Of a stretch of 64,000 nt of DNA, positions 48,253 through 63,875 are shown piece by piece; the first letter of the stretch is position 1, and the number at the start of each line of letters is the position of its first letter. The position numbers and the translations under genes are program-made. A model generated the notes under the pieces. That model saw nothing but the letters and a program-made list of their open reading frames with translations. It did not search any database and was not told the origin of the DNA. The stretch covers positions 17,517 to 81,516 of the IMG/VR virus record IMGVR_UViG_3300047472_000134. One strand, written 5' to 3'. This DNA is from a virus.

Positions 48253-51200
48253 TAGTCCGCGATCAAAATCCTAGAGTTGTCGAGCTCGATCCGCATCTTG
48301 TTGTTTGCTGAACGGGCCAGGCCAGCGACGACTTCCCCAAGGTTGGCAGAGAAGGCCGACAGCTGGGTAACAGATATGGAGTTCGCAGTGATGGCGCCAG
48401 CCGCCAGCTTCTCGGCAGTGATGCTTCCTGCATCAAGATGGTTCGTTTTGATTGCACCATCGGTGATCTCGGTCGCGCCCAGAGCCAGTGGGGTGCCGTT
48501 GGCGCTGTTGAGATTGAAGTTCGACCGGTTGCCATCCTTGTCCACGGCGCGGACCCAGACGTAATACTTCACACCGGCCGTCAGGCCAGGGATAACGCCC
48601 GACGTTCCAGACGAGACGCCGCCGTAGATTGCCGTCGTGCTATCGTCCGTGGTGCTGTAGAAGATCTCGATACGATCGAGGTCCGTGTCGGAGGGGTTGG
48701 TCCAGAACGCCGCAAGGAACTTGAATCCGGCCGTGACCGTGAGACCGGTTGGGGCTTCAGGCGGAATTGGATCGCCAGCGCCGCCACTCGGGAATGGGAT
48801 GTCCAGCGACATCTGATTGCCGAAGTTGAGGTTGCCGCCCTCCATCAAGTCATAAAAAGCTAGCTTGAAATACCACTTGGTGTTGGCCTCGAGCGGGATC
48901 GCGACGTTGTTGTTCGGACCCTTGTAGACTAGGTTGGCCGCGCTCGGAACGAAACTGTCCAAGGTGGAGGCGTGGATCACGACACCCTTGAAGTCGCGGA
49001 TCGCCGGGACGTCATAGTGAACGACAGCTGCATCGTAGAGCACCTCGACGCTCTGGGTCGCAGGAGCGGCCGGCGCGTCATTCTTCACCGACAGCACAAC
49101 GTAATCGGAGATGAATCCGAATTGATCCTTCGTCGCGACGGCGATCTTGAAGGCACGGCGAGGCGTGCCCTGCCCGTCGTTGACGTTGGCCGTGTACTCG
49201 TAGGTGTAGTAGGTCCGGTCCAGGCTCTCTTCGCGGATGACCGTATCCTGCAGATCGCGGACCTGGAGAACATACTCCTGGAAGTAGACGTCCTTGGATG
49301 CCGGCCACTGGAAGAGCGGCGAGCGGCTTTCGAAGTCCGTCTCGGTCGGCTCGTCGATCATGCGGAGGCTCTCGATGCCATCCACGACGCGGGTGTCACC
49401 GATCAGGCGGTGCTCGATGACTGAAGGCACCGATGCATAACCATTCACATCGACTGCAGAAATCTGGAAGAAGTATTCGCCAGATGGGATGTCGTCCCAC
49501 TCGAAAAGAGGGACCGGAGATTCGCCCAGCGTGGCCAGTGGTCCGTTGTCACGGGAGCCTTCGATCCGGTAGCGCGTCACGGTCTTCGTGGTGCTTGGAT
49601 CCCAGCCGAGGCTCAGGGTGGTGATCTGGCGGGCGCCGACCGTGCGGGTCGTTGCTCGGACGAGAACGTTGGTGACCGGCTCAGGTTTCTTCTTGGTGTC
49701 GAGGACATACTTGTCGAGCTCGTCGATCGAGCCGACATGACCGTCGATGAACAGCCACTTGGCTCGGTTCATCTGAATAGCCTGGATGTCGATGTTGTCC
49801 GGATCACCATCCGCTTCTGAGATCGACAGGACGCGGAATGCTACCGGAGCTGCATCGCCGTTCGCCTGCTCGATCGAGAAGACGGCATGCTCCGGAAGGT
49901 TGACCGGCAGATCGGTCAGCGTGTTCAGCTCGGTCAGGGCACCCGTGGCCGACGTCAGCTCACGGGTCTCGATCACGAAGTCCTCAGTGGCTTCGCTGAT
50001 AACCTGGAAGCTGATGCGGTAGCTGAAGCCAGGTTCGAGAAAGATCGGATCGCGGAGCTGGATCTTGCGGGGCGACGGGATGGACTGAACGCGGCCTGTG
50101 ACCCCGTTCTCCATATCCTCGTCGGCGCACAGGATCACATTGTAGGGCGACATGTAGAGGCCCATGCGATTGGTCTTGAAGTTGACCATCATGGTCTCGG
50201 TCGTGCCCGTGATCAGATCGTAGCGGGCGCGGCGGATCGCCTCTTCTTCATCCGTACAGCCAACCGCTTCGAAGTTGCTCGGGATGCGGCCATACTGATT
50301 GATGTGGTCCTGGTCGAAGACGCGACGACGGTCTGTCTGCCAGTTCAGATCTTCGTTGGTGAACGAGACGGTGATGTCGTTGTGGCGGGTGGAGATCTCC
50401 GTCCACGAGTAGGTGAAGAGACCATCGACGACGTTCTCAGGCGTGAAGATCGTGACCGGCGTGTCGTCGCGGTCGATCCGGATGACGCCTTCACCATTGC
50501 CGTCGTCGAAGAAGCGAGCGGCCATGATGCCGCACATGAAGTTGATGGCGTCACGACCGCCGCGGGCCTCAGTGATCAGGCCATTGAAGGTGAAGCGCGG
50601 CTTGCCTGAAGCGGTCGGCGTGTCGCACCAGACGCCAGCAGCGTAGACGTCCCACTTGTTCAGCGTGATCGGGTAGTAGGCATTCATGCCGTACCGATCG
50701 TTGAGCACCAGGTCGTTGACGATGTAGGCCAGGTTGTTGGTGTAGGCGAGCTTCCAGGCGCCATCCCAGAAACCAGTGTGGACACGAGTGGCTGGGTTGT
50801 AGTTCGATGGAACGCGGACGATGCGGCCGAGATAAACGCCCGAGAAATCCGGGACCGACGAGAACTGTTCGCTGGCGCGAGCCACGAGCTGCGTGACAGC
50901 CAGACCTGGGAACTTGTAGCCCTTGGCGGTGACCTCCTGGAACGACTCCCAGGTAATGCTGAAGAAGAGTTCGGTCGTGTCATTGGGCGACGTCTTGGTG
51001 ACGCGCCACATGTAGGGCTCGTCCACCCGGTCGACCGGGATGCGGAATTCCTTGGGGAAAGCAGAGGTGGTCTTGGCAGTGATCGCCACCTCGCCGTTCG
51101 TCAACGTGACGCTGCCGCCAGTGCCGTTCTCACCGAAGGTACCAGGACGCAGCGAGGAGCCGGCGATGATCCAGGCCGAGCCGTTGAAGAAGAACGCCCT

Positions 51201-52061
51201 GCCCTGTCCAGTGTGCAGCCAGTAGTCGCCCTGCTCGGGAACGAAGCCCACGATCTTCGGCCCGACGAAACCCTTCGTCTGCCTGTCCGCACCCTTGGAG
51301 GATCCCTCGGCCCAGGTCCAGACGTTGTTGGCGAACACCAGGCTGGCGGGGAAATACCAGCTGGAACCGTCGAAGATCTTTGGCTTATAGTTGTTCGAGG
51401 TGTCGAACCAGATGCCGGCCTTGGCGGTCGAGACCGGCTGACTTGCCGCCCAGTAGGTTGGCCGGTCGCCAGGCGAGGCGTTGATCTTGGCCGTCTGCGT
51501 CTCGTCGCCATAGAAGACGTCGAAGCTGTCGCCAGAGATCTGCGGCGGAAGCGGATTGACCTCCGGAGTCCTGACGGGCCTCCAGCTGCTGTCGCTGACC
51601 TTCTTGTACTCGATGCGCCAGCGACCAGTGTGGTTGAACGTGCCTTTGTCGTTCTGCTGCGCCAGCTGGTTGATGGTGAAGCGAAGATCGACGTAGTCGA
51701 CGTTGGTGTGCGTACCCTGGCGGACGATCGCTACGCCCGAGGCCATCTCGGTGTTGACGGTGGTCGAGGAGCCGAACCCGCCCATACGGGAGTAGATGTC
51801 CTCGCCCTGCTCGCTACCCTTGTAGTCAATGAGCTCGAAATTATCGAAGTTGTTGGAGCCGCTATCGTCCTGGAGGTTTGTGGTTCCGATGCGGTAGGAT
51901 TTGGCGCCGTTCTCCAGGCCGAAGATGGGGCCTTCTGAGACGCCGATGAGAGCTTCGACCACGTCGGTCGCGAAGAGACTGTCTCGAGTCTGGGTCGGTG
52001 ACTTTGCAGAACCTCCCTTCGAACCGCTGAGTTTTCGAAGGGATATATCATGTACTGTCAT
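48252..52061 (-). CDS. Tail tip / host-specificity protein (lambda gpJ-like)
   Basis: SEGPI.GL, VRVPSNY.P, WDG.WK.AYTNN.A, PRFTFN; FN3-like domains. Confidence 0.92.
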   Translation of the reverse strand: MTVHDISLRKLSGSKGGSAKSPTQTRDSLFATDVVEALIGVSEGPIFGLENGAKSYRIGTTNLQDDSGSNNFDNFELIDYKGSEQGEDIYSRMGGFGSSTTVNTEMASGVAIVRQGTHTNVDYVDLRFTINQLAQQNDKGTFNHTGRWRIEYKKVSDSSWRPVRTPEVNPLPPQISGDSFDVFYGDETQTAKINASPGDRPTYWAASQPVSTAKAGIWFDTSNNYKPKIFDGSSWYFPASLVFANNVWTWAEGSSKGADRQTKGFVGPKIVGFVPEQGDYWLHTGQGRAFFFNGSAWIIAGSSLRPGTFGENGTGGSVTLTNGEVAITAKTTSAFPKEFRIPVDRVDEPYMWRVTKTSPNDTTELFFSITWESFQEVTAKGYKFPGLAVTQLVARASEQFSSVPDFSGVYLGRIVRVPSNYNPATRVHTGFWDGAWKLAYTNNLAYIVNDLVLNDRYGMNAYYPITLNKWDVYAAGVWCDTPTASGKPRFTFNGLITEARGGRDAINFMCGIMAARFFDDGNGEGVIRIDRDDTPVTIFTPENVVDGLFTYSWTEISTRHNDITVSFTNEDLNWQTDRRRVFDQDHINQYGRIPSNFEAVGCTDEEEAIRRARYDLITGTTETMMVNFKTNRMGLYMSPYNVILCADEDMENGVTGRVQSIPSPRKIQLRDPIFLEPGFSYRISFQVISEATEDFVIETRELTSATGALTELNTLTDLPVNLPEHAVFSIEQANGDAAPVAFRVLSISEADGDPDNIDIQAIQMNRAKWLFIDGHVGSIDELDKYVLDTKKKPEPVTNVLVRATTRTVGARQITTLSLGWDPSTTKTVTRYRIEGSRDNGPLATLGESPVPLFEWDDIPSGEYFFQISAVDVNGYASVPSVIEHRLIGDTRVVDGIESLRMIDEPTETDFESRSPLFQWPASKDVYFQEYVLQVRDLQDTVIREESLDRTYYTYEYTANVNDGQGTPRRAFKIAVATKDQFGFISDYVVLSVKNDAPAAPATQSVEVLYDAAVVHYDVPAIRDFKGVVIHASTLDSFVPSAANLVYKGPNNNVAIPLEANTKWYFKLAFYDLMEGGNLNFGNQMSLDIPFPSGGAGDPIPPEAPTGLTVTAGFKFLAAFWTNPSDTDLDRIEIFYSTTDDSTTAIYGGVSSGTSGVIPGLTAGVKYYVWVRAVDKDGNRSNFNLNSANGTPLALGATEITDGAIKTNHLDAGSITAEKLAAGAITANSISVTQLSAFSANLGEVVAGLARSANNKMRIELDNSRILIAD

Positions 52062-52102: not shown

Positions 52103-53161
52103 TTAGTGAGCGGTTTTTCCAGAGCGCCAGCGAGCCCGCATCCACTTCAGACGCTCGGCAGCTTCGAACGGATCGAACTCCAGGCGGATGAAATTGATCG
52201 GGGACGAAGCGTAAGGATCGATGAGTGCGACGGGCATGTTGTACATGTCCTTGGCGTCGAGGTTCAGCTCCTCCGCATAGCGGTCGATTTTCTTGTAGCT
52301 GGCGACCTGGACGGCGTGCCAGATCTTCCCCGATGAGGGACGCATGCCGTGTGCATAGCCAGAGGTATGGATGTGTCCGCCGACATAGATGTCGTGGTGT
52401 TCGCCATCCAGCTGAGCCTTCTTGGCAGCGCCATAGCTCTCCGACCACATCGACTTGCCCTGGAAGCCATGGACAGCGTAGATCTTCACCTCGCGCTGGC
52501 TGGGCAGGGTCAGCCGCAGGCGGGCCTTTGTCGATTTGTGGACCGCAGCACTGCCGGCGAGGATGCCCTTCAGGATGTCGCCGCCCTGCCCCCAGACATC
52601 GTGGTTGCCGTTCAGATAGAACAGCCAGTTCACGCGGGTCAGGATATCCTCGACGAGAGCGATGGACTCGGCCGAGCTGGTGGACTGCTCAGCGTAAAGA
52701 CGGGCAAGACGGCCAGCCCAGTTGTTGAAGACGTCACCGACGTTGCCAGCGAACATGCCTTCGACGCTTCCGTCGATCAGGCTGACGTGATCCAGAACCT
52801 GCTTCAGATCCGTGCCATCGTCGTCCAGGTGCCAGTCGCCGGCCAGTGCCAGGCCGATCGGGCCATCGACCTTGCAGCGAACATTGATCAGCTTCTCGCG
52901 CTCGTAGATCTCGGACTTCCGAGCGAACTGCTCGATGCGCCGCTCGATGAGCTTCGCGACGTCGATGCTCTCAGCCAGCTTGCCGCCAGGGAGATCGACT
53001 TCGAACTGAGATTCAGCATCCGGATCGCTCCAGCGCTTGTTCATGCCGCGGATGCCCGACTCGGAAATGTCGTAGCCGCGTTCGCGAAGGTAGCGAGCGG
53101 CTGGCCTGAAGCCCCCCATCTCGTTGATCGCGTTCTTGATGAGGTCTTCAGATGGACGCAT
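52103..53161 (-). CDS. Calcineurin-like metallophosphoesterase with N-terminal HTH-like region
   Basis: GDWH, GDVFNN, GNHD, HG, GHIH. Confidence 0.85.
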   Translation of the reverse strand: MRPSEDLIKNAINEMGGFRPAARYLRERGYDISESGIRGMNKRWSDPDAESQFEVDLPGGKLAESIDVAKLIERRIEQFARKSEIYEREKLINVRCKVDGPIGLALAGDWHLDDDGTDLKQVLDHVSLIDGSVEGMFAGNVGDVFNNWAGRLARLYAEQSTSSAESIALVEDILTRVNWLFYLNGNHDVWGQGGDILKGILAGSAAVHKSTKARLRLTLPSQREVKIYAVHGFQGKSMWSESYGAAKKAQLDGEHHDIYVGGHIHTSGYAHGMRPSSGKIWHAVQVASYKKIDRYAEELNLDAKDMYNMPVALIDPYASSPINFIRLEFDPFEAAERLKWMRARWRSGKTAH

Positions 53162-53169
53162 GGATAATC

Positions 53170-53730
53170 CTATTTGGGGTTATATTCGATTGCGTTGATG
53201 TCGAACGACAGGAAGTGCCCGAAGCACAGGTGGCGTCCGTAGAGGATGGGGATGCGGGTACCGATGGTGACGGTGTTCTTCGGGGCGCCAAGGTAGCTGC
53301 TGCGCTGCTGCTGATCTCCGACGTCCGTCTGGGGCTTCGGAGCGAGCATAGCACTCAGGCCCCCCAGGATCGCCAGGGCGCCAACCTTCATCAGGATGGA
53401 GCCGAGAGCCGTGCCACCGAACATGAAGAAGCCCACGGCCACGAGCGCAACGCCGAGCAGGATCTGAAGCAGACCGCCAGACTTGCCGCCGGCCAGCTGT
53501 GGCACGATGTGGATGAACTCAAGCTCCTGGTCGAGCTGCTTGTAGAGCGACTCCTCCGTTTCGAAGCCGACAACCTTCGCCCGATGACGCCCGCGGATCG
53601 GGCACGGTGCAAAGCCGAGCAGCTGGCGCGTGACGCCCTCGACGGCCTCGGCTGCGGTATTGCAGTGGATCAGGATCGGGCCGTCGTGAAAGGCGGCGAA
53701 GTACCCGTGGAGGACGACTTTAATCAGCAA
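53170..53730 (-). CDS. Tail assembly protein I-like
   Basis: IHIVPQLAGG, Gly-rich hydrophobic stretch, G..IPILYG. Confidence 0.88.
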   Translation of the reverse strand: MLIKVVLHGYFAAFHDGPILIHCNTAAEAVEGVTRQLLGFAPCPIRGRHRAKVVGFETEESLYKQLDQELEFIHIVPQLAGGKSGGLLQILLGVALVAVGFFMFGGTALGSILMKVGALAILGGLSAMLAPKPQTDVGDQQQRSSYLGAPKNTVTIGTRIPILYGRHLCFGHFLSFDINAIEYNPK

Positions 53731-54043
53731 TGAGAACGTCCCCCTTCTCGACGTAGTATTTGGTCACGCCGTCGTTTCCGACGATGTAATGCTCGAGGTC
53801 GGGCCAGCTGCGAAATGCATGATAGTCGTCGGCCGACAGCACGGAGTCCGCGCCAGGGTGGGTGTGCCAGGAGGCAGCAGCCTGCGGCGTCCACAGAACG
53901 AGATCCTCGCCTTTGAAGTCAAAGCCCTGCGTCGGTTCCGGGTGGACGTTTTCGCACTCGATCAGCTCGCCAGACTTCAGCAGGAAGCCGCAGCGCTCAG
54001 TCTCGCCCTCATACAGGGAGTTCATTTTCTCGGAGATATTCAT
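53720..54043 (-). CDS. JAB/MPN domain tail protein (gpK N-half-like)
   Basis: ERCG, WHTHP...LSADD. Confidence 0.85.
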   Translation of the reverse strand: MNISEKMNSLYEGETERCGFLLKSGELIECENVHPEPTQGFDFKGEDLVLWTPQAAASWHTHPGADSVLSADDYHAFRSWPDLEHYIVGNDGVTKYYVEKGDVLIAD

Positions 54044-54500
54044 CGAGCTTCCTTCGGACGCGAGGGGGAACGAGGTCGAGCAATTCGGCGGTACCGGTCT
54101 CGCCTGTCAGCTTCACGTCCTTGTGTCGGATGACAGCCAGGGTGGTGTTGCGGCTTAGGCCAGCGTACGGTTCCGCGACCGAGAAGCGGCCCCAGAGATG
54201 GTGGAGGATCTTGCCGCTGTCGACGAGGACACCAACGTGGTTGGCGGTCTGCGAGTCGATGGCGCACAGCACAACGTCGCCGGCCTGGTACTCAGATGGA
54301 TGGCACTCAAGCAGCTCAAAACCGATCTTGCTGTAGCCGTCCATGTAGAGGTTCAGGCCATGCTTCCAGAAGAACTTCGGGCGGGCAAAGTTGGGCAGCG
54401 TGATGCCGAAGTTGTCGATATAGAAATTGCGGAGCAGCGTGTAGCAGTCCTGCTTTCCATAGACGAACGGCTTCATGGTGAGGTGTTCGTACTTGATCAT
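54009..54500 (-). CDS. NlpC/P60 tail protein (gpK C-half-like)
   Basis: G.QDCY.L.R, NHVGV, ILHH. Confidence 0.88.
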   Translation of the reverse strand: MIKYEHLTMKPFVYGKQDCYTLLRNFYIDNFGITLPNFARPKFFWKHGLNLYMDGYSKIGFELLECHPSEYQAGDVVLCAIDSQTANHVGVLVDSGKILHHLWGRFSVAEPYAGLSRNTTLAVIRHKDVKLTGETGTAELLDLVPPRVRRKLDEYLRENELPV

Positions 54501-54991
54501 CAGAAGCTCACCATCGGGAAGTCGGGCGGGATAAACATCCGGCATGGGATCTGGAAGTTGGCGCCTTCGGTCATGTTCCGGAGCTCGAGCGAGATGCTCT
54601 GGCCAGAGATGAGTTCTCGGATACGGCCGACGTACCACATGCGGCGAGTGGCAATGTTGATGTCGGCGTCCAGATTTCCACGCAAGACGCGGTATCGGAT
54701 GACGGTCGCCAGATCGAGCTGGCCCTTCTTCGCGGCCGAGTTGAAGATGCCGAAAGGGTTCATGACCTGGAGGAGTGGGCGGCTTTCTTCACCGTCTGCG
54801 GACTGGCTGTCGCCGGTCAGCTTGCAGGCCATTCCCTCGTACTTCTTGCCTTGCCATGTGATTGTGTCCTCGCCCTTGAAGCGGAATTCGACCGGCAGGT
54901 TCTTGAGCTTGACGTAGAACAGGTCGACCTCTGCATCAGCTTGAAGTTTTTGGGCCTCTTGCAGATGCTCGATCGGCGCATTCGTCGTCAT
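54500..54991 (-). CDS. Minor tail protein L-like
   Basis: ITWQG.KY, RP.L.V.N, ELR; position. Confidence 0.75.
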   Translation of the reverse strand: MTTNAPIEHLQEAQKLQADAEVDLFYVKLKNLPVEFRFKGEDTITWQGKKYEGMACKLTGDSQSADGEESRPLLQVMNPFGIFNSAAKKGQLDLATVIRYRVLRGNLDADINIATRRMWYVGRIRELISGQSISLELRNMTEGANFQIPCRMFIPPDFPMVSF

Positions 54992-55368
54992 GGCTGGGTC
55001 AGGATCTCCAGCTGGAATGGTTCAACTGTTCCTTTACCGTCCTCGGCAAGTGCGTAGTCGAGGGGTTTGGAAAAGCGGACGATCATTGTGCCATGACCAG
55101 GGAGGGGAAGCTTGAAACGCTTCCACAAGCGGTGGCGTTGATAGAACTTCTCAAGGCGATTGATATTGATCTCGGGCCTCACTGAGGGAATAACCCGCCC
55201 AGCTTCATCCGTGAAGAACACCATCGTTTTGAATTTCAGTGTATAGGTGACCTGATCAGGCCCTTTAGGTGCAGTGGTGAATTCCCAGCCCCTTCCAAAC
55301 TTCACGCCCGCAGACGATTCTGGGTATTTAACGGCCCAGGTGAAGTAGGGGAAATCAAACGTTTCCAT
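54988..55368 (-). CDS. Distal tail protein (gpM-like)
   Basis: METFDFP, VKFG.G.E, LEKFY..H...K.F; position. Confidence 0.75.
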   Translation of the reverse strand: METFDFPYFTWAVKYPESSAGVKFGRGWEFTTAPKGPDQVTYTLKFKTMVFFTDEAGRVIPSVRPEININRLEKFYQRHRLWKRFKLPLPGHGTMIVRFSKPLDYALAEDGKGTVEPFQLEILTQP

Positions 55369-56027
55369 CCCGGCTGATATGGGTTTGATTCCAGCACGTT
55401 ACAAGGGTTTGCGGGCTGCTCCACTTCTAAGGATAAATCTTGTTTATTCGTGGTCGTGACATTTTTCGACCCACCCCTGCCCCAGATCCAGGCGAGCCAT
55501 TCCTTGCAGGTGATACGGACGACGTTGAGCTTGTTTCGATCGTAGGCCAAGCGCTCGCGGTGGACGTTGATCAGGCCCAGATCCTCAGCCTTCTTGCAGG
55601 TTTTCTGAACCATTGAGCGGCAGACACCAGCGATGCTCGCGATCATGTCGACCGGCAGGTTCATACGGCTCTTCTTCCGGACTTCATCCGCGATCACGCT
55701 CAGGACGGCCAGCTCACCAGTCGTGAATTGGGCGGCGACCGAGGGGCTGATTGGCGCGAAGGCTGCACGACGACGACGACGGGCGATCGACGCGGCACGG
55801 TCCTGGGATTTGATCGCCTTCCGACGACGGAAGAAGTCCCGGCGTTTCCAGTTTGGTGCCCTTCTCGCTTGGTCAATCGCGTCGAACCAAAGGGTGGCCA
55901 TCTCATCTGACAGGTTCCCGCCAGCCCATTGTGTGGTGATCATGCGGTATAAGTTGTCGAGCTGGTTAGGTTGTAGGCTTTTGAGATAAACGATTTCTGG
56001 TTGTATTAAATGTTGGAGTGCAACCAT
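55302..56027 (-). CDS. Winged-HTH protein, candidate plasmid replication initiator
   Basis: IASIAGVCRSMVQK...AEDLGLI.V HTH with NVVRI wing; Arg-rich; ctRNA-like unit upstream; start uncertain (up to 56075). Confidence 0.6.
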   Translation of the reverse strand: MVALQHLIQPEIVYLKSLQPNQLDNLYRMITTQWAGGNLSDEMATLWFDAIDQARRAPNWKRRDFFRRRKAIKSQDRAASIARRRRRAAFAPISPSVAAQFTTGELAVLSVIADEVRKKSRMNLPVDMIASIAGVCRSMVQKTCKKAEDLGLINVHRERLAYDRNKLNVVRITCKEWLAWIWGRGGSKNVTTTNKQDLSLEVEQPANPCNVLESNPYQPGWKRLISPTSPGPLNTQNRLRA

Positions 56028-56083
56028 TCGGGTCGGTCCCTCTAAGACGCAGCTTGCCATTTCGAAAATCGCCAAATTTCCGA

Positions 56084-56190
56084 TTGACTTCTGATTCGTT
56101 TTATGAGAGCTTCAGACCTGTTGAAGGGCTTCTCTGAAGCTCGCTGGATATTCAAAAGCACTGAGGCGCCAACCTCGGTGCTTTTTCGTT
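56084..56190 (+). ncRNA. ctRNA-like antisense RNA with promoter and terminator
   Basis: TTGACT-TCTGATTCG promoter; GAGCTTCAGA/TCTGAAGCTC inverted repeat; AAAAGCACTGAGG-CGCCAA-CCTCGGTGCTTTT terminator; antisense to the wHTH leader. Confidence 0.6.
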
Positions 56191-56274
56191 TCTGCAGGAA
56201 TTGTTAACGCAAGAGTGATTCCTTTCGGCCAAATGATGTGGCATCTTGAACGAGTCGCTGAGTCGTGACAAGAA

Positions 56275-56295
56275 GGTACTCACCCCGTTAGTACC
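56275..56295. promoter_or_regulatory. Inverted repeat, probable RHH operator
   Basis: GGTACT-N9-AGTACC, 13 bp upstream of the RHH ATG. Confidence 0.5.
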
Positions 56296-56308
56296 GCGGA
56301 GTTAGTTA

Positions 56309-56488
56309 ATGAAAGCCAAAGACGCTGTTTTGACGATCAAGATTGAGCAGGAGCTTCGCGAAGCTTTCGCAGCTGAAGCTGCAGCTCAGGATCGTCCAGT
56401 CTCAAGTGTTCTTCGGGAATTGATGCGCGACTATCTGAGCCGTCGTCGGCCGATGGCTGAGATGCGTCACGATCAGCAAAGCGCCTGA
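56309..56488 (+). CDS. 59-aa RHH (CopG/antitoxin-like) protein (not in ORF track)
   Basis: MKAKDAVLTIKIEQELREAFAAEAAAQDRPVSSVLRELMRDYL...; GGAG RBS. Confidence 0.75.
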   Translation: MKAKDAVLTIKIEQELREAFAAEAAAQDRPVSSVLRELMRDYLSRRRPMAEMRHDQQSA

Positions 56489-56517
56489 GCAACTTACCCC
56501 CGTATAAAGATTTCTCG

Positions 56518-56922
56518 ATGCCCAAAATATTGAGTGGAGACTACAAGGGAACTGCCATCTGGCAGACCACTTTTCCTTGGTTCGGCAAACAGGCGAAATA
56601 TTTCAAGGGCGTCATGATTGCTGACCCCACCAAAGGCAAGATCTACACGAAGGACGAGATCGTCCGCGTGAAGGAACTAGGCGCCGCCACAGACTTCAAC
56701 GCCAGTCAGGGTTTTGGCGCCGCTGTCGGCGGTGCGATGCTTGCTGGACCAGTTGGAGCCTTGGCTGCTCTGGGAGCTCGCAAGAAGTCGTTTACCTACG
56801 GGATTGAGTTCACGGATGGAATGAAGATCGTCGTTCGTGAAGAGAACCCGGATAGCTACAAGGACTTCGGAATTTTCAAGAACTATGTCGAGCAGAAAGG
56901 CCTGCTCGACATTCAGTTCTAG
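56518..56922 (+). CDS. Glycine-zipper hypothetical protein
   Basis: GAAVGGAMLAGPVGALAALG; convergent with the tape measure gene. Confidence 0.7.
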   Translation: MPKILSGDYKGTAIWQTTFPWFGKQAKYFKGVMIADPTKGKIYTKDEIVRVKELGAATDFNASQGFGAAVGGAMLAGPVGALAALGARKKSFTYGIEFTDGMKIVVREENPDSYKDFGIFKNYVEQKGLLDIQF

Positions 56923-59900
56923 CCACCCATCTGAACCTGCTGGATCAGCTTCTTGAGCGTACCACGGCGCTGGATGTTGTCCGCTACGTGGGCAACGACA
57001 TCGTTCGGCCCCATCTGCGGCTGCTGATCCGGCGACACGATCCAGACGTTTACGACGCCTGAGCCCTGCTGCTGGTTGTCGTTGGCTACGCGGCCGGCCA
57101 GCTGTCCTTCCGAGATTTGACGGTTGCCCAGGTTGTTCATCTGGGTCAGCTTGTCTTCACCGATCATGGACACGGCCGACTGCCGCAGGACCATCTCGCC
57201 AGGCATCAGCTTGTAGTTTCCACCGTCACGGAACGGTGAAACCTTCGTGCCATTCGCAGCTCGGTTCATACCCCCGTTGGCCTTGCCTCCGACGACGCCA
57301 AGCAGCATCTTGCCGAAGTCACCGAAGATACCCGAGCTGCCGGTCTTGCTGTCACCGCCGCCAAACAGCGACATGATGATCTGGTTGGCGAGAGCCTTGG
57401 CAATGATCTGGATAAACATCTGCAGAATCGTCTGACCGAGCTGCTTGAAAGCCTCGCCGGCCGACATGGTGCCCGACGCGATGTTGGTGAAGAACTGCGA
57501 GAAGCCCGAGGACAGGCCGTCGAGCACTTCACCCCAGGTCGTCTCGAACTGCTTCGCCAGCGGGATCATCTGGTTGTTGGCGTCGATGATGCCGTTCTGC
57601 TGCGCCCAGGCGTTGGTGGCCGATTGGATGGCGCTGCTGACGGACGGACCCTGATTGGCCTTCGCGGCGTCGAGGAGGTTGTTGGTCTCCTTCAGCTCAT
57701 TGTTCTTTTTGAGGAGGTCGTTCTCCATGGTCTTGAGCTGGAGAATTTCCGTGTCACGGGAGCCGTCAGGGTTGTTCGCTTCAGCCTCTGCGGCCATCCG
57801 GCGAACTTCAGCGATCTCCTTTTCGATCAGCAGAACGCGGTTGGCTGCAGCCTCACGCTCGCGATCGACAACGTTCTGCTGCAGCTTTTGGATGTCGGCC
57901 TGCGTGTACTTGCTGGCCATGTCAGGCTGCTGAGCGATATCAAGAGCCGCCTTGGCGCGGTCGACTGGCTTGTTGAGTTCCTCGTCCGCTGCCTTGTAGT
58001 ATTCCTCCATTACCTTCTGGAGGTCGGAGTTCAGATTCTCACGCAGGCCGGCCTTCAGCTCCTTGAGCTTGTTGGCGTAGTCACCCGGATTTTCATCCTT
58101 GAGGGTGGCGTTCTCGGCGTCGAACTTCTTGATCTCCTGATCGAGCAGCTGGTCGTGGGCATCGTGAATCTGCTTCTGCAGATCGGTCAGGGACTTGGCG
58201 TCGTCCGTGAAGCGGACCTGGGTCTTCAGGTTGCCGATACGAGACTTGAGGTTGGTGATGGCAGCGTCGGCCTGTGCCTCGATACCCTTGTTGATGTTCT
58301 CCTTGACCTGTTTGTCGGTGTCGTCCGCGATCTTCTTGACCTCGACATCGCCCGCGGTGTCAGTGCCAGACAGGAATGCCTGAGCGCGGGACATACGCTT
58401 CCCGACATGGTTGACCGAAGGATCTTTGTTCGGGCGCTCGAACTGATCCATGAACGCCTTGGAAAGCGTCTGGGGATCTTCATCACCCGCCTTCAGGCGA
58501 GCAAACAGGTCTGGGTAGTCCCGCATAAGCTCCTTCAGTACGAAGTCGTACTGAGTGCCGATATCGTTCGAAGCCGTCCCGCGCTTGATAGCCTCCGACC
58601 GAAGCTCGTTCCAACGGGTGCCACGCCACTGAGCAACACCATGGGCAGAGCCGTGGTCACCAACAGCGTCAGGATTGAATTCAGATTCAACGGACAGGTT
58701 GGAAGCGATCGCCGCGGCGCCTGCCTTGGACAAACCCCGTTCCATGAAGTGCTTGATGGCCGACTGGGCGCTTCCAGCCATGGCCTTGCTGACGGGCTCG
58801 TTCAGATCGATGCCCTCGAGCTGAACGTCGATGTTGCCGATCTTATTGAGCTCGCCACCGAGCTGAGCAGTCAGCTCCTTGATCTTGGTGACGAGCGCGT
58901 TCATCGCGTCACTCGGCGGGGTCTTTTTCAGCTCGGCCGTCGCAGCTTCGATCTTCTCGCGAAGTGCCTTTGCCGAATCCTGAACCGCTTCCTTCTGGCG
59001 CTGGAGCGACTCCTTCTGCAGGTCGAGAGCCTTGGCATCGTTCGCACGCTGCTGCTCGGCGGTCTCGGCGGCTGCACGCTCGAGGAAGTCACTGCGTTCA
59101 TCCTGCAGCTTCTCGACAGCGTCAGTGTCCTTGTTCAGGTTCGCCAAGCGGATCAGCTCGTCATAGAAATCCACGATCTGCTTCGTGGTCGCGGCGCGGA
59201 GATCCTCGTAGCCCTTCTTCGCGGCCTCGAATGCTTCGTTGTTCCGAGCGCCTGAGATCTGGCGCTGCCAGCGGGCAAGCTCCTTATTCTGGTTCGTCTC
59301 GGCTTTTTTGACTTCCTTGGTGACGTACTTCGTCTGAGAGGTGATCGCCTTCTGGCTTGCCTCGTTCAACTTGAGCTGCAGTGCTGCGAGCGCCTGGTCG
59401 ATTCCAGACGATACAGCACTTCCGTCCAGGCCAGCCAGGTTCGGGTCGGAGGCGGACTCCTTTGCGAAGTCGTCCTTGAAGGCCTGGACCGACTTATCAC
59501 GTACCGTCTCGAGCCATTTGCGGACGGAGGCGTAGGCGGCAATCTTCTGCTCGTCGTTCATGCCGCCAGAGCTGATGCCGGCGATCCGATCGTTGAAGCC
59601 AGTCTGGATGTTCTGTGCCCGCTCTGTCAGGGCCGCATAGGACTTCGATCCCTGTACACCAGCGTTCGCCTCGTTACGCAGGATGACAGTGAGGTCGGCG
59701 GTAGCCGCCGCGGTCTTCGTCAGGTTGGCGACGATCGGATCGAGAGTCTCCTTCAGCGTCGTCAGGAAGCCGAGGTTGCCATCTGGATCGCCCTTGCGCT
59801 GAGCTACCGTGATCTGCTCATTCACGTATTTGCTGATCGACAGCGCCTGGCGGGCATCATGCACCTGGCTCAGATCACCCAACGAGATCCGCAGGGCACT

Positions 59901-62312
59901 TCCGATGTTCGTGCCGAATTTCTTGGAGATGGCATCGATCAGGTAGTTGTTCGAGGACGCTTCGACGGCGCCACCTACACCACCATTGGCCAGGTCCGCC
60001 TGCTCACGAAGATAGTTCGCCTGCGGTCCCTGGCGGTTGGTCAGCCTGTCGCGCTGTTCTTTCAGCTTGTCGATTTCAGCGCGGCGGGTCTCGGCAGCTT
60101 CTGCCAGTTCGGCCGCTCGGACACGAGAAGACGTCGAGCGGAGATCGTTCAACTCACGGATCAGGTCCGTGACCGACATGGTGTCGTCCTTGATCGACAG
60201 GCCGAGTTCGTTGAACTGAGTGCGGAGCTCGTCGATCTTTGCCTGACGGAGGAAGCCATCCTTGTTGAGCTCGTCGCGGCGATCGATCAGGCCTTGGATC
60301 GCAGTATCAAGGGAGCCGATCTTGCTTTCAGTCGCGTCCGCTGCGCCCTTGAGGTCGTTGACCTTGGACTCGAGGGCGTCGATGCTGGTCGTCAGCTCAT
60401 CCGCCCTGCCCTTCCAGGCGAAGAACGCACCAGTGGCAAGCACAACGCCGGCTACCAGCAGGCCGATCCAGTTCGAGGCCAGGACAGCCATAAGGCCAGC
60501 CAGTGCCCTGCTGAAGAAACCAAGCTCGACCGTGGCTCCAGCGACAACGGTGGAGGTCAGGGCGAACGCAGCGCTGAAGGTCGAGACCAGTGGGATCATC
60601 AGGCCGAGGCTCTTGATCAGGTTGCCGAACAGCGAAACTCCGAGCACCGTAGCGAGGACGCCAGCGACGGAACCAATACCCTGCAGGAGACCTGGAAACT
60701 GGTTAAGCCAAGAGACGATCTGTGTGGCGCCGACCATTACCTTCTGGAACACCGCCAGCAGAGGTTCAAAAGCCGTGAAGGTCGAAGCGCCCAAAGTGTT
60801 CTGAAGCGTCTGAGCCGTGTTGCTCAGCGAAGTCATCTGGATCGCGTTTGCTTCAACAGCAGCAGCCGAGAGCGTGAAGCTCCGCTGCATATCCTTGGCC
60901 AGTTCAGTGTTGTTCGCCAGAGCCAGGTAGGCTGCAGCCGAGCGGGTCTCGAGAGATTCGTAGGCTTCAGCCGCGCCGAAGCCCGCCTTCTTCAGGGTCT
61001 CGATGACAGGCAGGAAGCCCTTCGTCTTGACGTTGATATCGTCGACGGACAGGCCCGCCGCTCGCAGGGTTGCGGTCAGCTTCTTGGACGGGTCTTGCAG
61101 ATCGGTGAGCAGGGCACGGAAGCCAGTGCCCATCGTCGAGGCCTTCACACCCGACTGGGACAGAGCGCCCAGGATCGAGGTCGTCTCCTCGAGCGAGATA
61201 CCCATCGCTTCAGCAGTCGGGCCGATGTAGTTCAGCGACGTCTGGAGCTTGTCCACGGACAGCTTCGACAGGTTGAGCGCTGCGGTGAAGATGTTGGCGA
61301 CGTCGCCCGTGCGGCTCGTTTCGAGGTTGAAGGCAGTCAGGGTCGAGGTGACGACGTCAACCGCCTGGGTGAGGCTCGAGCCGGTCGCGGTTGCGAACTG
61401 AGCGATCGAGCCAAGCGACTCCGTCACCTGCTTGGTGGAGAGACCGGCCTGGGCCAGTTCAGTTGCTGCCTTGGCGATCTCGACCGTGCTGTAAGGAACG
61501 GCCTGGGCTACATTCAGCAGGTTCTGTTTGAAGGCCACCATCTCGGAGTTGGTCGCGGTCGAGATGGCCTGGAACTGATGCAGCTCCTTGTCCAGCTCGA
61601 CGATGCCAGAGCCGGCGCTCTTGATGGAGCTGAAGAGCCCACCGACTGCGGCGTAGTTCAGCATCACGCGACCCTGGATACCCATCAGGTCGGAGCCACC
61701 GTTGTAGTTCAGCTGCTCGAGGCGCTTGCGGCTAGCCAGTGCGGCCGAGCCATTCTCCCCTGCGTAGATTGTGTCGGCGCGGCGCTGGTCAGCCAGTCGG
61801 GATTTGGCCGAGAGTAAACGATCGCTGGAGTTGGCCACCTGCTGGGTGGCCGCATATTCTGCAGAGCGAATGCGGGCGTTGATCGCCTCTTCGGTCGTCT
61901 TCAGCAGGCTGACAGTCTGCTTGACGATCGCATCCTTGACGCTGGCCTTCACGGCCTCGGTCGAATTCCTGATGTCGCTGATCAGCGACTGGGCAACGGC
62001 GCGGTTGATATTGTTGGCGTCGGCCGAGCGACCGTTTACGCCCGAGGACTGGCCGACGCGACCGTAGAAGCCCCGCTCGATGGTGTCGGCCCGCGACTGA
62101 GCGCGGGCCTGCTGCGCGAGCGTTCCATCCTTGTAGAGATCGGTGATCTCCTTCAGGGCGGACTTCAGCTTCTTGACACCAGCCTCATTGACTTTGAGGG
62201 CCTGGTTGAAGTCGGCTGAGATACCGTTCAGTTGTTTACGAAGCGCCTCCAGCTCCTGTCGAGCTTCCTGAGTGTTCAGTTCGTAATCAACTTCAAAGGT
62301 ATTCTCAGCCAA
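56919..62312 (-). CDS. Tape measure protein with tail-lysozyme domain
   Basis: 1797 aa, helical; TP901-like core (ELAQAG, LSQSG...GT); NL..ES.FNP.A.GD.G..G.AQW...R...FERP. Confidence 0.93.
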   Translation of the reverse strand: MAENTFEVDYELNTQEARQELEALRKQLNGISADFNQALKVNEAGVKKLKSALKEITDLYKDGTLAQQARAQSRADTIERGFYGRVGQSSGVNGRSADANNINRAVAQSLISDIRNSTEAVKASVKDAIVKQTVSLLKTTEEAINARIRSAEYAATQQVANSSDRLLSAKSRLADQRRADTIYAGENGSAALASRKRLEQLNYNGGSDLMGIQGRVMLNYAAVGGLFSSIKSAGSGIVELDKELHQFQAISTATNSEMVAFKQNLLNVAQAVPYSTVEIAKAATELAQAGLSTKQVTESLGSIAQFATATGSSLTQAVDVVTSTLTAFNLETSRTGDVANIFTAALNLSKLSVDKLQTSLNYIGPTAEAMGISLEETTSILGALSQSGVKASTMGTGFRALLTDLQDPSKKLTATLRAAGLSVDDINVKTKGFLPVIETLKKAGFGAAEAYESLETRSAAAYLALANNTELAKDMQRSFTLSAAAVEANAIQMTSLSNTAQTLQNTLGASTFTAFEPLLAVFQKVMVGATQIVSWLNQFPGLLQGIGSVAGVLATVLGVSLFGNLIKSLGLMIPLVSTFSAAFALTSTVVAGATVELGFFSRALAGLMAVLASNWIGLLVAGVVLATGAFFAWKGRADELTTSIDALESKVNDLKGAADATESKIGSLDTAIQGLIDRRDELNKDGFLRQAKIDELRTQFNELGLSIKDDTMSVTDLIRELNDLRSTSSRVRAAELAEAAETRRAEIDKLKEQRDRLTNRQGPQANYLREQADLANGGVGGAVEASSNNYLIDAISKKFGTNIGSALRISLGDLSQVHDARQALSISKYVNEQITVAQRKGDPDGNLGFLTTLKETLDPIVANLTKTAAATADLTVILRNEANAGVQGSKSYAALTERAQNIQTGFNDRIAGISSGGMNDEQKIAAYASVRKWLETVRDKSVQAFKDDFAKESASDPNLAGLDGSAVSSGIDQALAALQLKLNEASQKAITSQTKYVTKEVKKAETNQNKELARWQRQISGARNNEAFEAAKKGYEDLRAATTKQIVDFYDELIRLANLNKDTDAVEKLQDERSDFLERAAAETAEQQRANDAKALDLQKESLQRQKEAVQDSAKALREKIEAATAELKKTPPSDAMNALVTKIKELTAQLGGELNKIGNIDVQLEGIDLNEPVSKAMAGSAQSAIKHFMERGLSKAGAAAIASNLSVESEFNPDAVGDHGSAHGVAQWRGTRWNELRSEAIKRGTASNDIGTQYDFVLKELMRDYPDLFARLKAGDEDPQTLSKAFMDQFERPNKDPSVNHVGKRMSRAQAFLSGTDTAGDVEVKKIADDTDKQVKENINKGIEAQADAAITNLKSRIGNLKTQVRFTDDAKSLTDLQKQIHDAHDQLLDQEIKKFDAENATLKDENPGDYANKLKELKAGLRENLNSDLQKVMEEYYKAADEELNKPVDRAKAALDIAQQPDMASKYTQADIQKLQQNVVDREREAAANRVLLIEKEIAEVRRMAAEAEANNPDGSRDTEILQLKTMENDLLKKNNELKETNNLLDAAKANQGPSVSSAIQSATNAWAQQNGIIDANNQMIPLAKQFETTWGEVLDGLSSGFSQFFTNIASGTMSAGEAFKQLGQTILQMFIQIIAKALANQIIMSLFGGGDSKTGSSGIFGDFGKMLLGVVGGKANGGMNRAANGTKVSPFRDGGNYKLMPGEMVLRQSAVSMIGEDKLTQMNNLGNRQISEGQLAGRVANDNQQQGSGVVNVWIVSPDQQPQMGPNDVVAHVADNIQRRGTLKKLIQQVQMGG

Positions 62313-62685
62313 GCGTGCCTCCTATTTCGGCAAATGCTTTGGCGAGCTCGTCGAAGGATTGAATCGCTTCGCTTTCGTTAGGTGCGGAGTTTCCTCCCCC
62401 TCCTCCAAGCGCTTCATCCACTACCAGGCGGAACGTCTCATATTCCTGGTAGTATCCGGCCATTCGCTCCTGGGATTTTAAGCTCACCAGGGTGGTCAGA
62501 TCCTCGAGGGAGTGTGACCAGTACACTTCCTCGAGTAGGCTGGGACGGACGCCCAGCGCCCAAATCAGGGAGTCGCGGAAGCTAAGTCCTTCAAGCCAGC
62601 CATGGAAGACTTGAGGCCCTCGAGCAGCTCCTTGTGGTTTTCGACGTGCTTGGCTGACTTTGCCAAGCGCCGCATGAAAAAACCC
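62305..62685 (-). CDS. Tail assembly chaperone extension (T segment, -1 frame)
   Basis: Overlapping -1 frame entered at G GGT TTT. Confidence 0.7.
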   Translation of the reverse strand, partial: GFFHAALGKVSQARRKPQGAARGPQVFHGWLEGLSFRDSLIWALGVRPSLLEEVYWSHSLEDLTTLVSLKSQERMAGYYQEYETFRLVVDEALGGGGGNSAPNESEAIQSFDELAKAFAEIGGTLG

Positions 62686-62972
62686 ATCAGGTGAGCTCCC
62701 GCCCAATCAAGGATGCGCTCGATGTCGTCGATCGAGATGTCGATATCGTCGATGTCTTCGACGGGCTTCAGTACCTTGCCGGTCACCTTCCGCTCAGCAA
62801 GTACAGCGGCGAGAATCTCGGCACGGAGGCCGTCGTCCAGCGACATGGCCGGCACAACTTCAGGCGAGCCGACGAGCAGAGAAAGTGCGTTCAGGAGTCC
62901 ATAGGACATGAACAGTTCACGTTCATTTCCGTCCTGGGTAATCGAGAGTTTGTCGTTGGTTTTTTCGGTCAT
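62565..62972 (-). CDS. Tail assembly chaperone (G)
   Basis: Lies between the major tail and tape measure genes. Confidence 0.8.
   Translation of the reverse strand: MTEKTNDKLSITQDGNERELFMSYGLLNALSLLVGSPEVVPAMSLDDGLRAEILAAVLAERKVTGKVLKPVEDIDDIDISIDDIERILDWAGAHLMGFFMRRLAKSAKHVENHKELLEGLKSSMAGLKDLASATP
62679..62685 (-). other. Programmed -1 frameshift slippery site GGGTTTT
   Basis: ATG GGT TTT TTC in frame 0; GGG TTT TTT CAT continues in -1 to 62305. Confidence 0.7.
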
Positions 62973-63000
62973 CAAAGATCCACTAAGTTCAAACAATTGC

Positions 63001-63025
63001 GCCCCAGTCATGTGGTGACTGGGGC
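63001..63025. terminator. Hairpin after the major tail gene
   Basis: GCCCCAGTCA-TGTGG-TGACTGGGGC. Confidence 0.5.
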
Positions 63026-63074: not shown

Positions 63075-63875
63075 TTAGCGGGGGAAGAGAATTGCCGCGG
63101 CCGTGGCGTAGTCGGCGTAGAACGGATCGGATTCGACACCCGAGTAAGGCGTGAATTCGAAAGGCAAGTTGCCGAAGTTGTCCGTCTGGAACGCGACACC
63201 CAGACCCTTCGTGACCTTGACCTTCGGGAGGTAGATCGTGAAGGGAGCGTTATCGGCCGGCAGGAGGCCGACGATCTTCGCAGCGAACTCAGGCTGAACG
63301 TCCGAGCCACCAACGTCGATACGCTTGACCTTGCCGATACGCGAGCCTACCGGGAAGACAGACTTCGTGGACGGCTCGTGGCCAGCGGCCAGGGTGATGG
63401 TGGACTTGCCAGTCGCGAAAACGGCCGTAGCGATCTTGGCGATGTGGACCTTGTCGTCCAGGCCGTTCTGGATGAAGACGTAGTCGCCGGCGTTCAGCTT
63501 GGAACTGACGTCCGCGGTGACTTCGATCGACTTGGTGGCAGTTGCGTACGCGGCCGAGGCCAGCCAGATGTCAGTGACCGTGTCGAACTCAACGCCCGAG
63601 GCGTCCAGGCCAGCGGCGTAGCCCATGTTGCGGAGCGTGTATTCGTAGACCTCCATGGAAGCCTTCAGGCCATCGCCGTTCTTGACGGACATGACAACCG
63701 AGTTCTTCACGCCCTGAGTAAGTTCGACGAAGGTCGGGTCGGCGGTGAGCTGGAAGTTCTTCACCAGTCCGATGGAGTGCTCCTCCGGATTCAGCTTGTG
63801 AAGGTCGGCAGGTGCGCCGATCATGACGGTCGCCGTGCTGAGCAGGAATTTCTTGGTCTTAGCGTTACCCGCCAT
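63075..63875 (-). CDS. Major tail (tube) protein
   Basis: Position upstream of chaperones and tape measure gene; strong codon bias; GAGG RBS. Confidence 0.8.
   Translation of the reverse strand: MAGNAKTKKFLLSTATVMIGAPADLHKLNPEEHSIGLVKNFQLTADPTFVELTQGVKNSVVMSVKNGDGLKASMEVYEYTLRNMGYAAGLDASGVEFDTVTDIWLASAAYATATKSIEVTADVSSKLNAGDYVFIQNGLDDKVHIAKIATAVFATGKSTITLAAGHEPSTKSVFPVGSRIGKVKRIDVGGSDVQPEFAAKIVGLLPADNAPFTIYLPKVKVTKGLGVAFQTDNFGNLPFEFTPYSGVESDPFYADYATAAAILFPR

Follow-up and report, generated by a model that had tools for sequence, protein, structure and literature searches.

What is a gene for a winged-helix protein, preceded by an elaborate leader, doing inside the tail operon of a siphovirus-type phage? 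The question is raised by the virus record IMGVR_UViG_3300047472_000134 (81,516 bp, classed in IMG/VR as complete with direct terminal repeats), of which we analysed bases 17517-81516, a stretch of 64,000 nucleotides hereafter called the window. In the window, the tape measure gene is set apart from the M-like tail gene by an island of about 1.6 kb. The island has three genes, one coding for the winged-helix protein on the - strand and two, coding for a ribbon-helix-helix (RHH) and a glycine-zipper protein, on the + strand. A preliminary description of this locus had suggested that the whole island is a plasmid replicon under antisense control. Our analysis suggests that its conserved core (55302-56271) may be a self-contained maintenance cassette, in which the winged-helix protein would act as a plasmid-type replication initiator, different from RepC, for the prophage state and under the control of a countertranscribed RNA (ctRNA). 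Judged from sequence and genomic company, the chances for and against this reading appear to us to be about equal.

A conserved cassette beside a variable slot

The separation of the two tail genes is real. In pMaq22A_3p, an 85.7-kb circular plasmid record of Methylobacterium aquaticum (NZ_AP014707.1; L042/L043 in our set) which is syntenic with the window phage in the tube, chaperone, tape measure, M, L, K, I, J, primase, helicase and polymerase genes, the tape measure and M genes abut, and the 1.6-kb stretch is therefore an insertion relative to this plasmid. It is also the only match for the large terminase of the phage in the plasmid collection (46% identity). Because a complete relative of the window phage, with ParA, is thus present as a circular plasmid record, pMaq22A_3p can be regarded as a phage-plasmid. 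The homolog of the winged-helix protein is encoded elsewhere on it, with an antisense terminator of its own whose loop is also CGCCAA. Terminase, primase, polymerase, a full tail module and ParA are carried by the plasmid, and its replicon typing is blank.

Relatives of the winged-helix protein are encoded on 26 viral contigs. Three of these (L004, L005 and L006, with 95, 67 and 49% protein identity) belong to the same phage type and keep the gene, together with its 250-nt leader, between the tape measure and M genes. Among the three, the RHH gene and the 134-aa (glycine-zipper) gene occur only in L004. The corresponding slot holds an opposite-strand gene, of 130 aa in L005 (862-1254, -) and of 122 aa in L006 (7315-7683, -), each with a lipoprotein-like signal peptide, and neither has an NCBIfam or PADLOC family match. 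Since the pair is replaced in L005 and L006, the island is made up of a winged-helix cassette that is conserved and, beside it, a moron slot with changing content, and the idea that the RHH and glycine-zipper genes are part of a conserved replicon has to be given up.

When the region of about 330 nt that precedes the gene is aligned for the four phages, conserved blocks stand out in otherwise diverged DNA. Three-way identity in 30-nt windows reaches 0.83 in the block of the antisense promoter and 0.77 in the terminator, which are the top non-coding segments, against 0.13-0.6 in most of the coding body of the winged-helix gene. By this contrast the leader elements are, to all appearance, under selection.

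Architecture of the leader

The positions of the leader elements are given in Table 1. The promoter-like site of the winged-helix gene takes the form TTG(T/G)CA-N17-CA(A/C)(G/A)AT in the alignment (TTGGCA-N17-CACAAT in L005 and L006), and in all three lineages the distance from the end of its -10 to the start codon is 216-220 nt and its spacer contains GANTC. The opposing site on the + strand reads TTGAC(T/A)-N14-TGn-GAGCTT, with GATTCG 2-3 nt after the -35. One GANTC (56093) is thus placed in the antisense spacer and two (56252 and 56260) in the sense spacer. The inverted repeat mentioned in the preliminary description is present with perfectly complementary arms; its outer part doubles as the antisense -10 and is kept in the relatives, and its inner part co-varies (CAGA/TCTG, TGA/TCA, CGA/TCG).

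The strong terminator with a CGCCAA loop, likewise described earlier, is also real. Read on the + strand, 97.4% of the alignment cells are paired with a single U.G wobble, and in all three diverged copies this wobble is U.G on the + strand versus a C.A mismatch on the - strand. Its folding energies in the three copies are -17.2, -16.3 and -17.3 kcal/mol on the + strand and -14.5, -13.6 and not detected on the - strand. The RNA predicted between the antisense -10 and the terminator measures 66-68 nt with -25 to -29 kcal/mol in the window, L005 and L006. Taken together, the promoter blocks and the terminator predict a countertranscript of about 68 nt. Even a permissive Rfam search (E <= 10) of 54900-57100 returned only chance snoRNA and miRNA rows, with no match to a ctRNA family. 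The repABC-style antisense control proposed for the locus is supported by its anatomy, which recurs in the family (see below), and by a promoter-like site that resembles the promoter of the repABC ctRNA, but not by membership of an Rfam ctRNA family.

Antisense terminators recur across the family

We scanned 600 nt upstream of the homologs at 30 loci, comprising the window, two named phages, 21 viral contigs and six plasmids; not included were L004, which is nearly the same as the window, the contigs L012, L014, L015 and L027, in which the gene is at or close to an end, and plasmid pF, in which it runs across the record start. At 13 of the 30 loci a terminator-like hairpin with a free energy (dG) <= -12 is present on the antisense strand within 300 nt of the start, compared with 2.05 +/- 1.4 in random 300-nt windows from the same loci (maximum 8 in 2000 trials). 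Sense-strand terminators are present at two loci only, and both are the same hairpins acting in both directions. The 13 loci are not independent, as the window, L005 and L006 are closely related to one another, and L032 is closely related to L033. Hairpins of POI1126 (L002) and L024, at -10.4, do not reach the threshold, and two further cases, pAtCFBP4996b (L037) and pMaq22A_3p (L043), lie outside the 30-locus set.

A TTGnnn-N16-18-nAnnnT site is found 35-57 nt before the hairpin at 12 of the 15 loci listed, and in phage AmM-1 and the Methylocystaceae plasmids the antisense site is again TTGAC(T/A)-N14-TGn-GAGnnT. The loop CG(C/G)CAA or TTG(C/G)CG occurs in 16 of the 329 terminator-like hairpins across all DNA scanned. 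Nine of these entries (seven loci) are leaders of winged-helix genes, two are the repABC ctRNA of a Shinella plasmid and five are located elsewhere.

Homologs keep company with partition genes

We surveyed 28 loci, from the two named phages plus the 26 viral contigs. ParA or RepA is encoded within about 2.5 kb of the homolog at eight of them (L001, L002, L008, L010, L011, L018, L024 and L028), while the tail-operon type accounts for three. The gene order in AmM-1 is ParA, small partner, homolog, and the ParA and partner of the window phage are 60% and 41% identical to this pair. Features of the window phage that would fit a phage-plasmid are the structural genes together with ParA, and the synteny with a circular plasmid record.

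A tblastn search found homologs on 85 plasmid records, mostly small plasmids of Methylobacterium, Methylocystis and Shinella, and twelve of them were examined. In five small plasmids (pSS37A-Re-6, pMSC49d, pSM30-2, M. bullatum plasmid 3 and pMNOD05), ParA lies within about 2.5 kb of the homolog, ParA and a small partner adjoin it, and there is no typed replicon and no Pfam Rep domain. No recognisable Rep is present on pF (6.3 kb) or pAtCFBP4996b (72 kb). The gene tables of PLSDB are not complete, however, and by itself the lack of a Rep annotation therefore counts for little. The first 6 kb of a Microvirga plasmid were viewed and contained nothing informative. A protein of about 160 aa with DnaD_N/HTH_36 is encoded on two homolog-carrying plasmids (L035:16919-17413 and L033:11720-12205); in M. 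bullatum plasmid 3 a gene of this kind lies directly downstream of the homolog.

A homolog in the place of repC

Protein gp36 of the Ochrobactrum phage POI1126 is a homolog of the winged-helix protein (E 2e-6; BFVD E 2e-10). In POI1126 and two related contigs of 59-60 kb (L024 and L028), repA and repB are followed after about 500 nt by the homolog. Directly after repB, the Rfam family ctRNA_p42d is matched with 45.3, 36.1 and 27.4 bits (E 4e-7, 2e-4 and 0.08), none of which reaches the gathering score of 50. In the repABC loci of Shinella, used as a positive control, the ctRNA scored 63.5 and 49.7 bits and the S-element 84.5 and 82.2 bits. Neither an S-element nor repC was found in the loci of the POI1126 group. 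As the S-element occurs only in the true repABC loci, the homolog appears to occupy the place expected for the S-element and repC. The POI1126 prophage is a plasmid, and in the passages cited here its authors report partition genes and no rep or other plasmid genes (PMC5492332). At the level of sequence, this arrangement is the strongest single argument that the family may do the job of RepC.

The ctRNA_p42d-like elements (RF00489) lie on the - strand at L002:7146-7182, L024:7439-7483 and L028:7187-7235. A second antisense terminator is present about 140-200 nt before the winged-helix gene in the phage-plasmids of this type.

The winged-helix protein

Presence of a winged-helix gene on the - strand of the island is confirmed by the AlphaFold2 (AF2) model and by generic helix-turn-helix (HTH) matches in Pfam. 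However, its start has been moved from TTG 56075 to ATG 56027, behind the Shine-Dalgarno sequence GAGGGA, because the source's own gene call (P0001) is 241 aa long. The last 67 nt of the gene overlap the start of the M-like tail gene. The model, with a mean pLDDT (predicted local distance difference test) of 76.5, consists of an N-terminal helical part (12-56), a basic helix (77-89), one winged helix (95-172), a short helix (175-183) and a disordered tail. The protein belongs to phrog_15967 (E 1.5e-40), the function of which is not assigned, and a replication-initiation family of PHROGs is matched faintly (E 0.034). Pfam gives only sub-threshold matches to generic HTH families, with GntR in 15 of 28 family members (best E 1.9e-4) and HTH_36 in six, and none of these 28 shows an effector-binding domain of the GntR or MarR type.

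That the protein is not a RepC, as proposed earlier, is supported. No match to the RP-C family of Pfam was obtained at E <= 1 for the window protein or at E <= 0.01 for the 28 members, and alignment (hhalign) with a thin RepC profile of two sequences gave a probability of 1.2%, with only the recognition helix aligned. A six-frame search of the phage genome with PF03428 found nothing, and 14 control genomes were equally silent. Rep3_N and Rep3_C are matched neither by the window protein, the model of which has a single winged helix, nor by the family members scanned. Foldseek found no match in the PDB at E <= 0.001 and MarR-type proteins at E about 5e-3; a sequence search of solved structures matched only helix-turn-helix turns (E >= 0.02). 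Wide VIA-align comparison gave generic winged helices (Z 7-10, at most 9.8), and BFVD gave family members together with assorted HTH and replication-named phage proteins. The kinds of winged helix returned by the fold searches include CodY, TFE, ORC/Cdc6, CRP, MarR and RepA_N initiators. These model-based searches do not tell an initiator from a regulator. The ESM Atlas returned only unnamed or HTH_36-bearing clusters, and none of the three island proteins is matched in NCBIfam or PADLOC.

The family is large, with 2816 clusters at 50% identity at E <= 1e-3 and 1138 at E <= 1e-30. A 41%-identical homolog (P0004) comes from an 83-kb contig of Rhizobium ruizarguesonis. The stretch itself was found in rhizosphere metagenomes and in no RNA run; the homolog and the metagenomes would be compatible with a Rhizobium host but are no proof of one. 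Among 20 longer members scanned, the winged-helix part is followed in one (P0196, 485 aa) by a fragment of an AAA ATPase at the C-terminus; as a clue to function, this sole fusion was considered too thin to use.

How the cassette could work

From this anatomy we infer two transcripts that pair with each other, an initiator activity and an origin. The promoter at 56271-56243 would make an mRNA which, from its putative transcription start, has a leader of about 210 nt, and the convergent promoter at 56084-56112 would make a constitutive countertranscript of about 68 nt ending at the terminator (56154-56185). The loop CGCCAA of the countertranscript could then contact the loop UUGGCG of the leader, from where pairing would spread over about 70 nt. 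Synthesis of the initiator may be lowered in this way if transcription ends prematurely, the RNA decays or the leader is refolded. With its target about 95-160 nt ahead of the start codon, the countertranscript is not expected to act by covering the ribosome site. Since the dose of the RNA would follow copy number, such a circuit would exert negative feedback. The GANTC sites in both promoter spacers may tie expression to methylation by CcrM (CcrM/GcrA), as in repABC.

Read on the - strand, the same hairpin is a weaker terminator, followed by UUUUGAAUAU, and might insulate the cassette from read-through out of the tape measure gene. At the other end of the cassette, the promoter-like site at 55404-55376, conserved as TTGTA(A/T)-N17-CA(T/C)AT(C/A), could restart transcription of the tail genes downstream. 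Close to it lie three DNA blocks (55400-55475) which, by analogy with the internal origin of repC, are a candidate origin or, as another possibility, a late-promoter element. These blocks are almost identical although the proteins are only 49-67% identical, and one of them is AT-rich with TTATCC.

Initiator, regulator, moron or packaging subunit

Four observations speak, with moderate confidence, for an initiator: the par linkage on plasmids without a Rep, the position in the repC slot of a proven plasmid prophage, the family-wide antisense architecture and the existence of a syntenic phage as a plasmid. The replicon interpretation of the preliminary description survives in part, in that the protein is not RepC, the leader looks like that of a countertranscript system and the par linkage and the repC slot are present among the homologs; a role of the RHH and glycine-zipper genes in a conserved replicon and membership of the RNA in an Rfam ctRNA family are not supported. 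A number of points weigh against an initiator. Neither an AT-rich origin nor a DnaA box has been established, and no convincing direct-repeat arrays (iterons) were found in the eight regions searched. The phage encodes its own primase-helicase and family A DNA polymerase, and its ParA is 43 kb away from the cassette. Three of the five par-linked plasmids also encode Prim-Pol, DUF927 or DnaD-like proteins. Neither promoter was called by a sigma-70 consensus scan of 54900-57100, although TTGACT of the + strand promoter claimed earlier is in place at 56084-56089. The four GANTC sites noted before are exactly at 56093, 56217, 56252 and 56260, but their clustering, four in 167 bp and the densest in the genome, has P = 0.30 under uniform placement of 136 sites. 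Covariation could be tested on three distinct sequences only, and the two compensatory pairs found were equalled in 84 of 500 shuffles, which is not significant. The main rival is a transcription factor of the mobile element, for example a regulator of lysogeny, late genes or maintenance genes, that would start no replication and the level of which would be set by a cis-antisense RNA. Regulators are known to be controlled in this manner, TraJ by FinP and cII by OOP. We consider this explanation a serious one, though on the whole rather doubtful. It agrees with the generic MarR/GntR/CodY-like winged helix (best structural matches CodY, TFE, ORC and CRP, Z 8-10) and with the source names in the family, which are hypothetical, HTH, GntR or biotin operon repressor with no replication name among them; gp36 of POI1126 likewise has the annotation of a transcriptional regulator. 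At 13-14 of the 28 loci the homolog is directly followed by HNH, terminase or portal genes, a position that also fits a late-gene regulator, and in the window the genes directly downstream are tail genes M to J. A homolog is located beside a Rep_3 initiator on pAU40rrn and coexists with repABC on two Shinella plasmids, and the lack of iterons points the same way. Against a regulator speaks that small plasmids devoid of phage genes and of a recognised Rep retain the gene beside parAB, and that in a proven plasmid prophage without another rep candidate it follows a repABC-type ctRNA, in the slot of repC; the missing GntR/MarR-type effector-binding domain is a further difficulty.

The remaining explanations are less likely. 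According to one, the entire 1.6 kb would be an ordinary moron island of immunity, exclusion or defence genes expressed from the prophage, with the winged-helix protein as a local repressor. The variable slot beside the cassette, filled by the RHH and 134-aa genes or by a lipoprotein-like gene in L005 and L006, and the divergent promoters with an inverted repeat between the winged-helix and RHH genes are in line with this. However, conservation covers the winged-helix gene and its leader but not the neighbouring genes, these morons do not accompany the homologs at other loci and PADLOC matches none of the three proteins, which makes such an island improbable. It is still far less probable that the protein is a DNA-recognising packaging subunit resembling a small terminase. 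In favour of this, HNH and TerL come directly after the gene in L015, L016 and L019, where nothing else that could be a small terminase was seen. Yet the gene is present on plasmids that have no packaging genes, it is far from TerL in the window, and the modelled central winged helix with its disordered tail has no oligomerisation domain after the DNA-binding part.

Other features of the island and of the phage genome

Table 1. Features of the winged-helix cassette, the island and the surrounding genome (positions in the window).
Feature	Position	Strand	Remarks
Winged-helix gene	55302..56027	-	241 aa; phrog_15967; open reading frame, source gene call, AF2 model
Sense promoter-like site	56243..56271	-	TTGTCA-N17-CAAGAT; two GANTC (56252, 56260) in spacer
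Predicted leader of winged-helix mRNA	56028..56236	-	~210 nt; hairpin loop 5'-UUGGCG-3'
Antisense promoter-like site	56084..56112	+	TTGACT-N14-TGA-GAGCTT; GANTC at 56093
Predicted countertranscribed RNA	56119..56190	+	About 68-70 nt; 5' stem-loop, then terminator stem-loop
Inverted repeat in leader	56107-56116 / 56133-56142		10-nt arms, 100% complementary
Terminator hairpin	56154..56185	+	Loop CGCCAA; 13 pairs in scan; RNAfold -17.2 kcal/mol
GANTC in early leader	56217..56221		GAGTC nearby in L005 and L006
Promoter-like site	55376..55404	-	TTGTAA-N17-CATATC; inside 3' end of winged-helix gene; GANTC at 55387
Three DNA blocks	55400..55475		Nearly identical in window, L005 and L006; unique in genome
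Inverted repeat, candidate operator	56275..56295	+	GGTACTCAC / GTTAGTACC; just upstream of RHH gene
RHH gene	56309..56488	+	59 aa; variable moron
Gene with Gly/Ala-rich centre	56518..56922	+	134 aa; variable moron; weak phrog_20920 match
Tail tube gene	63075-63875	-	
Tail chaperone gene	62565-63011	-	
Tape measure gene	56919-62312	-	
M-like tail gene	54988-55368	-	
L tail gene	54500-54991	-	
K tail gene	54009-54638	-	
I tail gene	53170-53730	-	
Metallophosphoesterase-like gene	52103-53161	-	352 aa; phrog_7339 'DNA repair exonuclease'; between I and J
J tail gene	48252-52061	-	
ParA (224 aa) and 95-aa partner	11667-12625	+	ParA itself 11667-12341; 43 kb from cassette

The RHH gene is supported marginally by its product, which scores 20.7 bits against RHH_1 (cut-off 20.5) and 22.7 against RHH_9 (cut-off 23.4; E 9e-5) and matches the Arc-like repressor family of PHROGs (E 1.1e-5). 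The inverted repeat that was said to belong to it is present. The third gene has a centre rich in Gly and Ala, as is seen on reading its sequence, and matches phrog_20920 weakly.

The direct terminal repeat of the record measures 127 bp, and its tail genes are lambda-like. Its other genes encode a gpA-type large terminase, a Prim-Pol/D5 primase-helicase, a family A DNA polymerase, a helicase and enzymes of nucleotide metabolism. By large terminase, the closest named relatives are siphoviruses of about 80 kb, e.g. Caulobacter phage Seuss (43% identity). No integrase was found among the open reading frames scanned. A tRNA or attachment site beneath the conserved C-terminal tail was considered and rejected, as ARAGORN detected no tRNA in the window. 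The metallophosphoesterase-like gene is conserved in L004-L006 and was not detected in pMaq22A_3p. An RtcB-type RNA ligase is encoded at 18586-19977 (+; phrog_1075, E 2e-95). Directly after ParA and its partner lies a 293-aa gene (12625-13506, +) with a sub-threshold match to RiboL-PSP HEPN (E 6e-5), in the place where AmM-1 has the winged-helix homolog; paralogy of the two genes was rejected (BLASTP E 0.45). In the whole genome there are 136 GANTC sites where base composition would predict 302, a depletion of about 2.2-fold.

Significance

An initiator gene throttled by a countertranscript is of a textbook kind. In literature searches of main texts, on the other hand, we found no publication that names this winged-helix family and no description of the protein family, of the RNA or of the placement inside a tail operon. 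Extending the initiator reading to the whole family, we propose, tentatively and with somewhat less than even confidence, that the 2816 clusters may represent a previously unrecognised class of initiators of Hyphomicrobiales plasmids, phage-plasmids and prophages, each with a new class of ctRNA of about 70 nt that has a UUGGCG/CGCCAA kissing loop and CcrM-sensitive promoters. RepC would have been displaced in the POI1126 type with the repABC ctRNA kept, and in the window the unit would have been transplanted into the tail operon with an insulating terminator and a restart promoter.

If the initiator reading is true, dozens of completed alphaproteobacterial plasmids would gain a replicon; among those examined, the ones with blank replicon typing include records from Methylobacterium, Methylocystis, Methylosinus, Pleomorphomonas and Agrobacterium. 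The rep gene that eluded the describers of POI1126 would have been found, and the displacement of RepC within a repAB-ctRNA frame would be a clear non-orthologous one. A module of about 1 kb (initiator and ctRNA) would be usable as a vector backbone and incompatibility marker for Hyphomicrobiales, and a replication module could be said to reside in a late structural operon when it carries its own insulation. Should the protein be a regulator instead, the family-wide antisense RNA would still be an undescribed class of cis-antisense RNA.

Comparison with known systems

The cassette differs from the iteron replicons of the Rep_3 type in that the protein matches no Rep_3 domain and has one winged helix only in the model, and in that no iterons were found in the eight regions. 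The repB gene of pMV158 is under the dual control of the RHH repressor CopG and the antisense RNAII (PMC4485353). An RHH gene and a predicted antisense RNA are likewise present beside the candidate initiator gene of the window. However, the RHH gene is divergent from the winged-helix gene, and because it is absent in L005 and L006, it is not a conserved part of the control circuit.

In the antisense control of the IncI-alpha/IncB/IncFII plasmids (ColIb-P9 Inc RNA, R1 CopA), 5'-UUGGCG-3' reportedly functions in loop-loop recognition. This hexanucleotide is named in the title of Asano et al. 1998 (cited in PMC10724649 and PMC3753616). The hairpin loop of the mRNA predicted in the window is UUGGCG as well, and in L010 and L037 the motif is on the antisense side. 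In contrast to those plasmids, another bacterial class and another family of candidate initiator are involved here, and no leader peptide or pseudoknot is evident.

Plasmid prophages of Hyphomicrobiales such as POI1126 and pLM21S1 persist as plasmids and carry par genes, whereas the cassette of the window is located in a tail operon and not beside par. According to the part of the report cited, pLM21S1 of Sinorhizobium uses a RepC-like system (PMC5537653).

Of the systems compared, repABC differs from the window in its initiator, as the window protein is not RepC, and in its RNA elements, as RF00489 does not match the window RNA and there is no S-element (RF00490) in 54900-57100. There is also no repA-repB upstream in the window, as there is in L002, L024 and L028, and the predicted target of the RNA is about 95-160 nt from the start codon. 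The likeness lies in the design. As in repABC, the leader of the candidate initiator gene is predicted to give rise to a short antisense RNA with a strong terminator at its end, and the putative promoter of this RNA has TTGAC(T/A) followed 2-3 nt on by GATTCG, as in the promoter of the repABC ctRNA. GANTC is present in both the sense and the antisense promoters; in the passages cited here, GANTC is reported to be enriched in repABC and repE promoters, and CcrM/GcrA coupling is reported for repABC of Agrobacterium (PMC11514494). The loop is CGCCAA in the window and CGGCAA in repABC, and in the POI1126 type the homolog itself comes after repA, repB and a ctRNA_p42d-like element.

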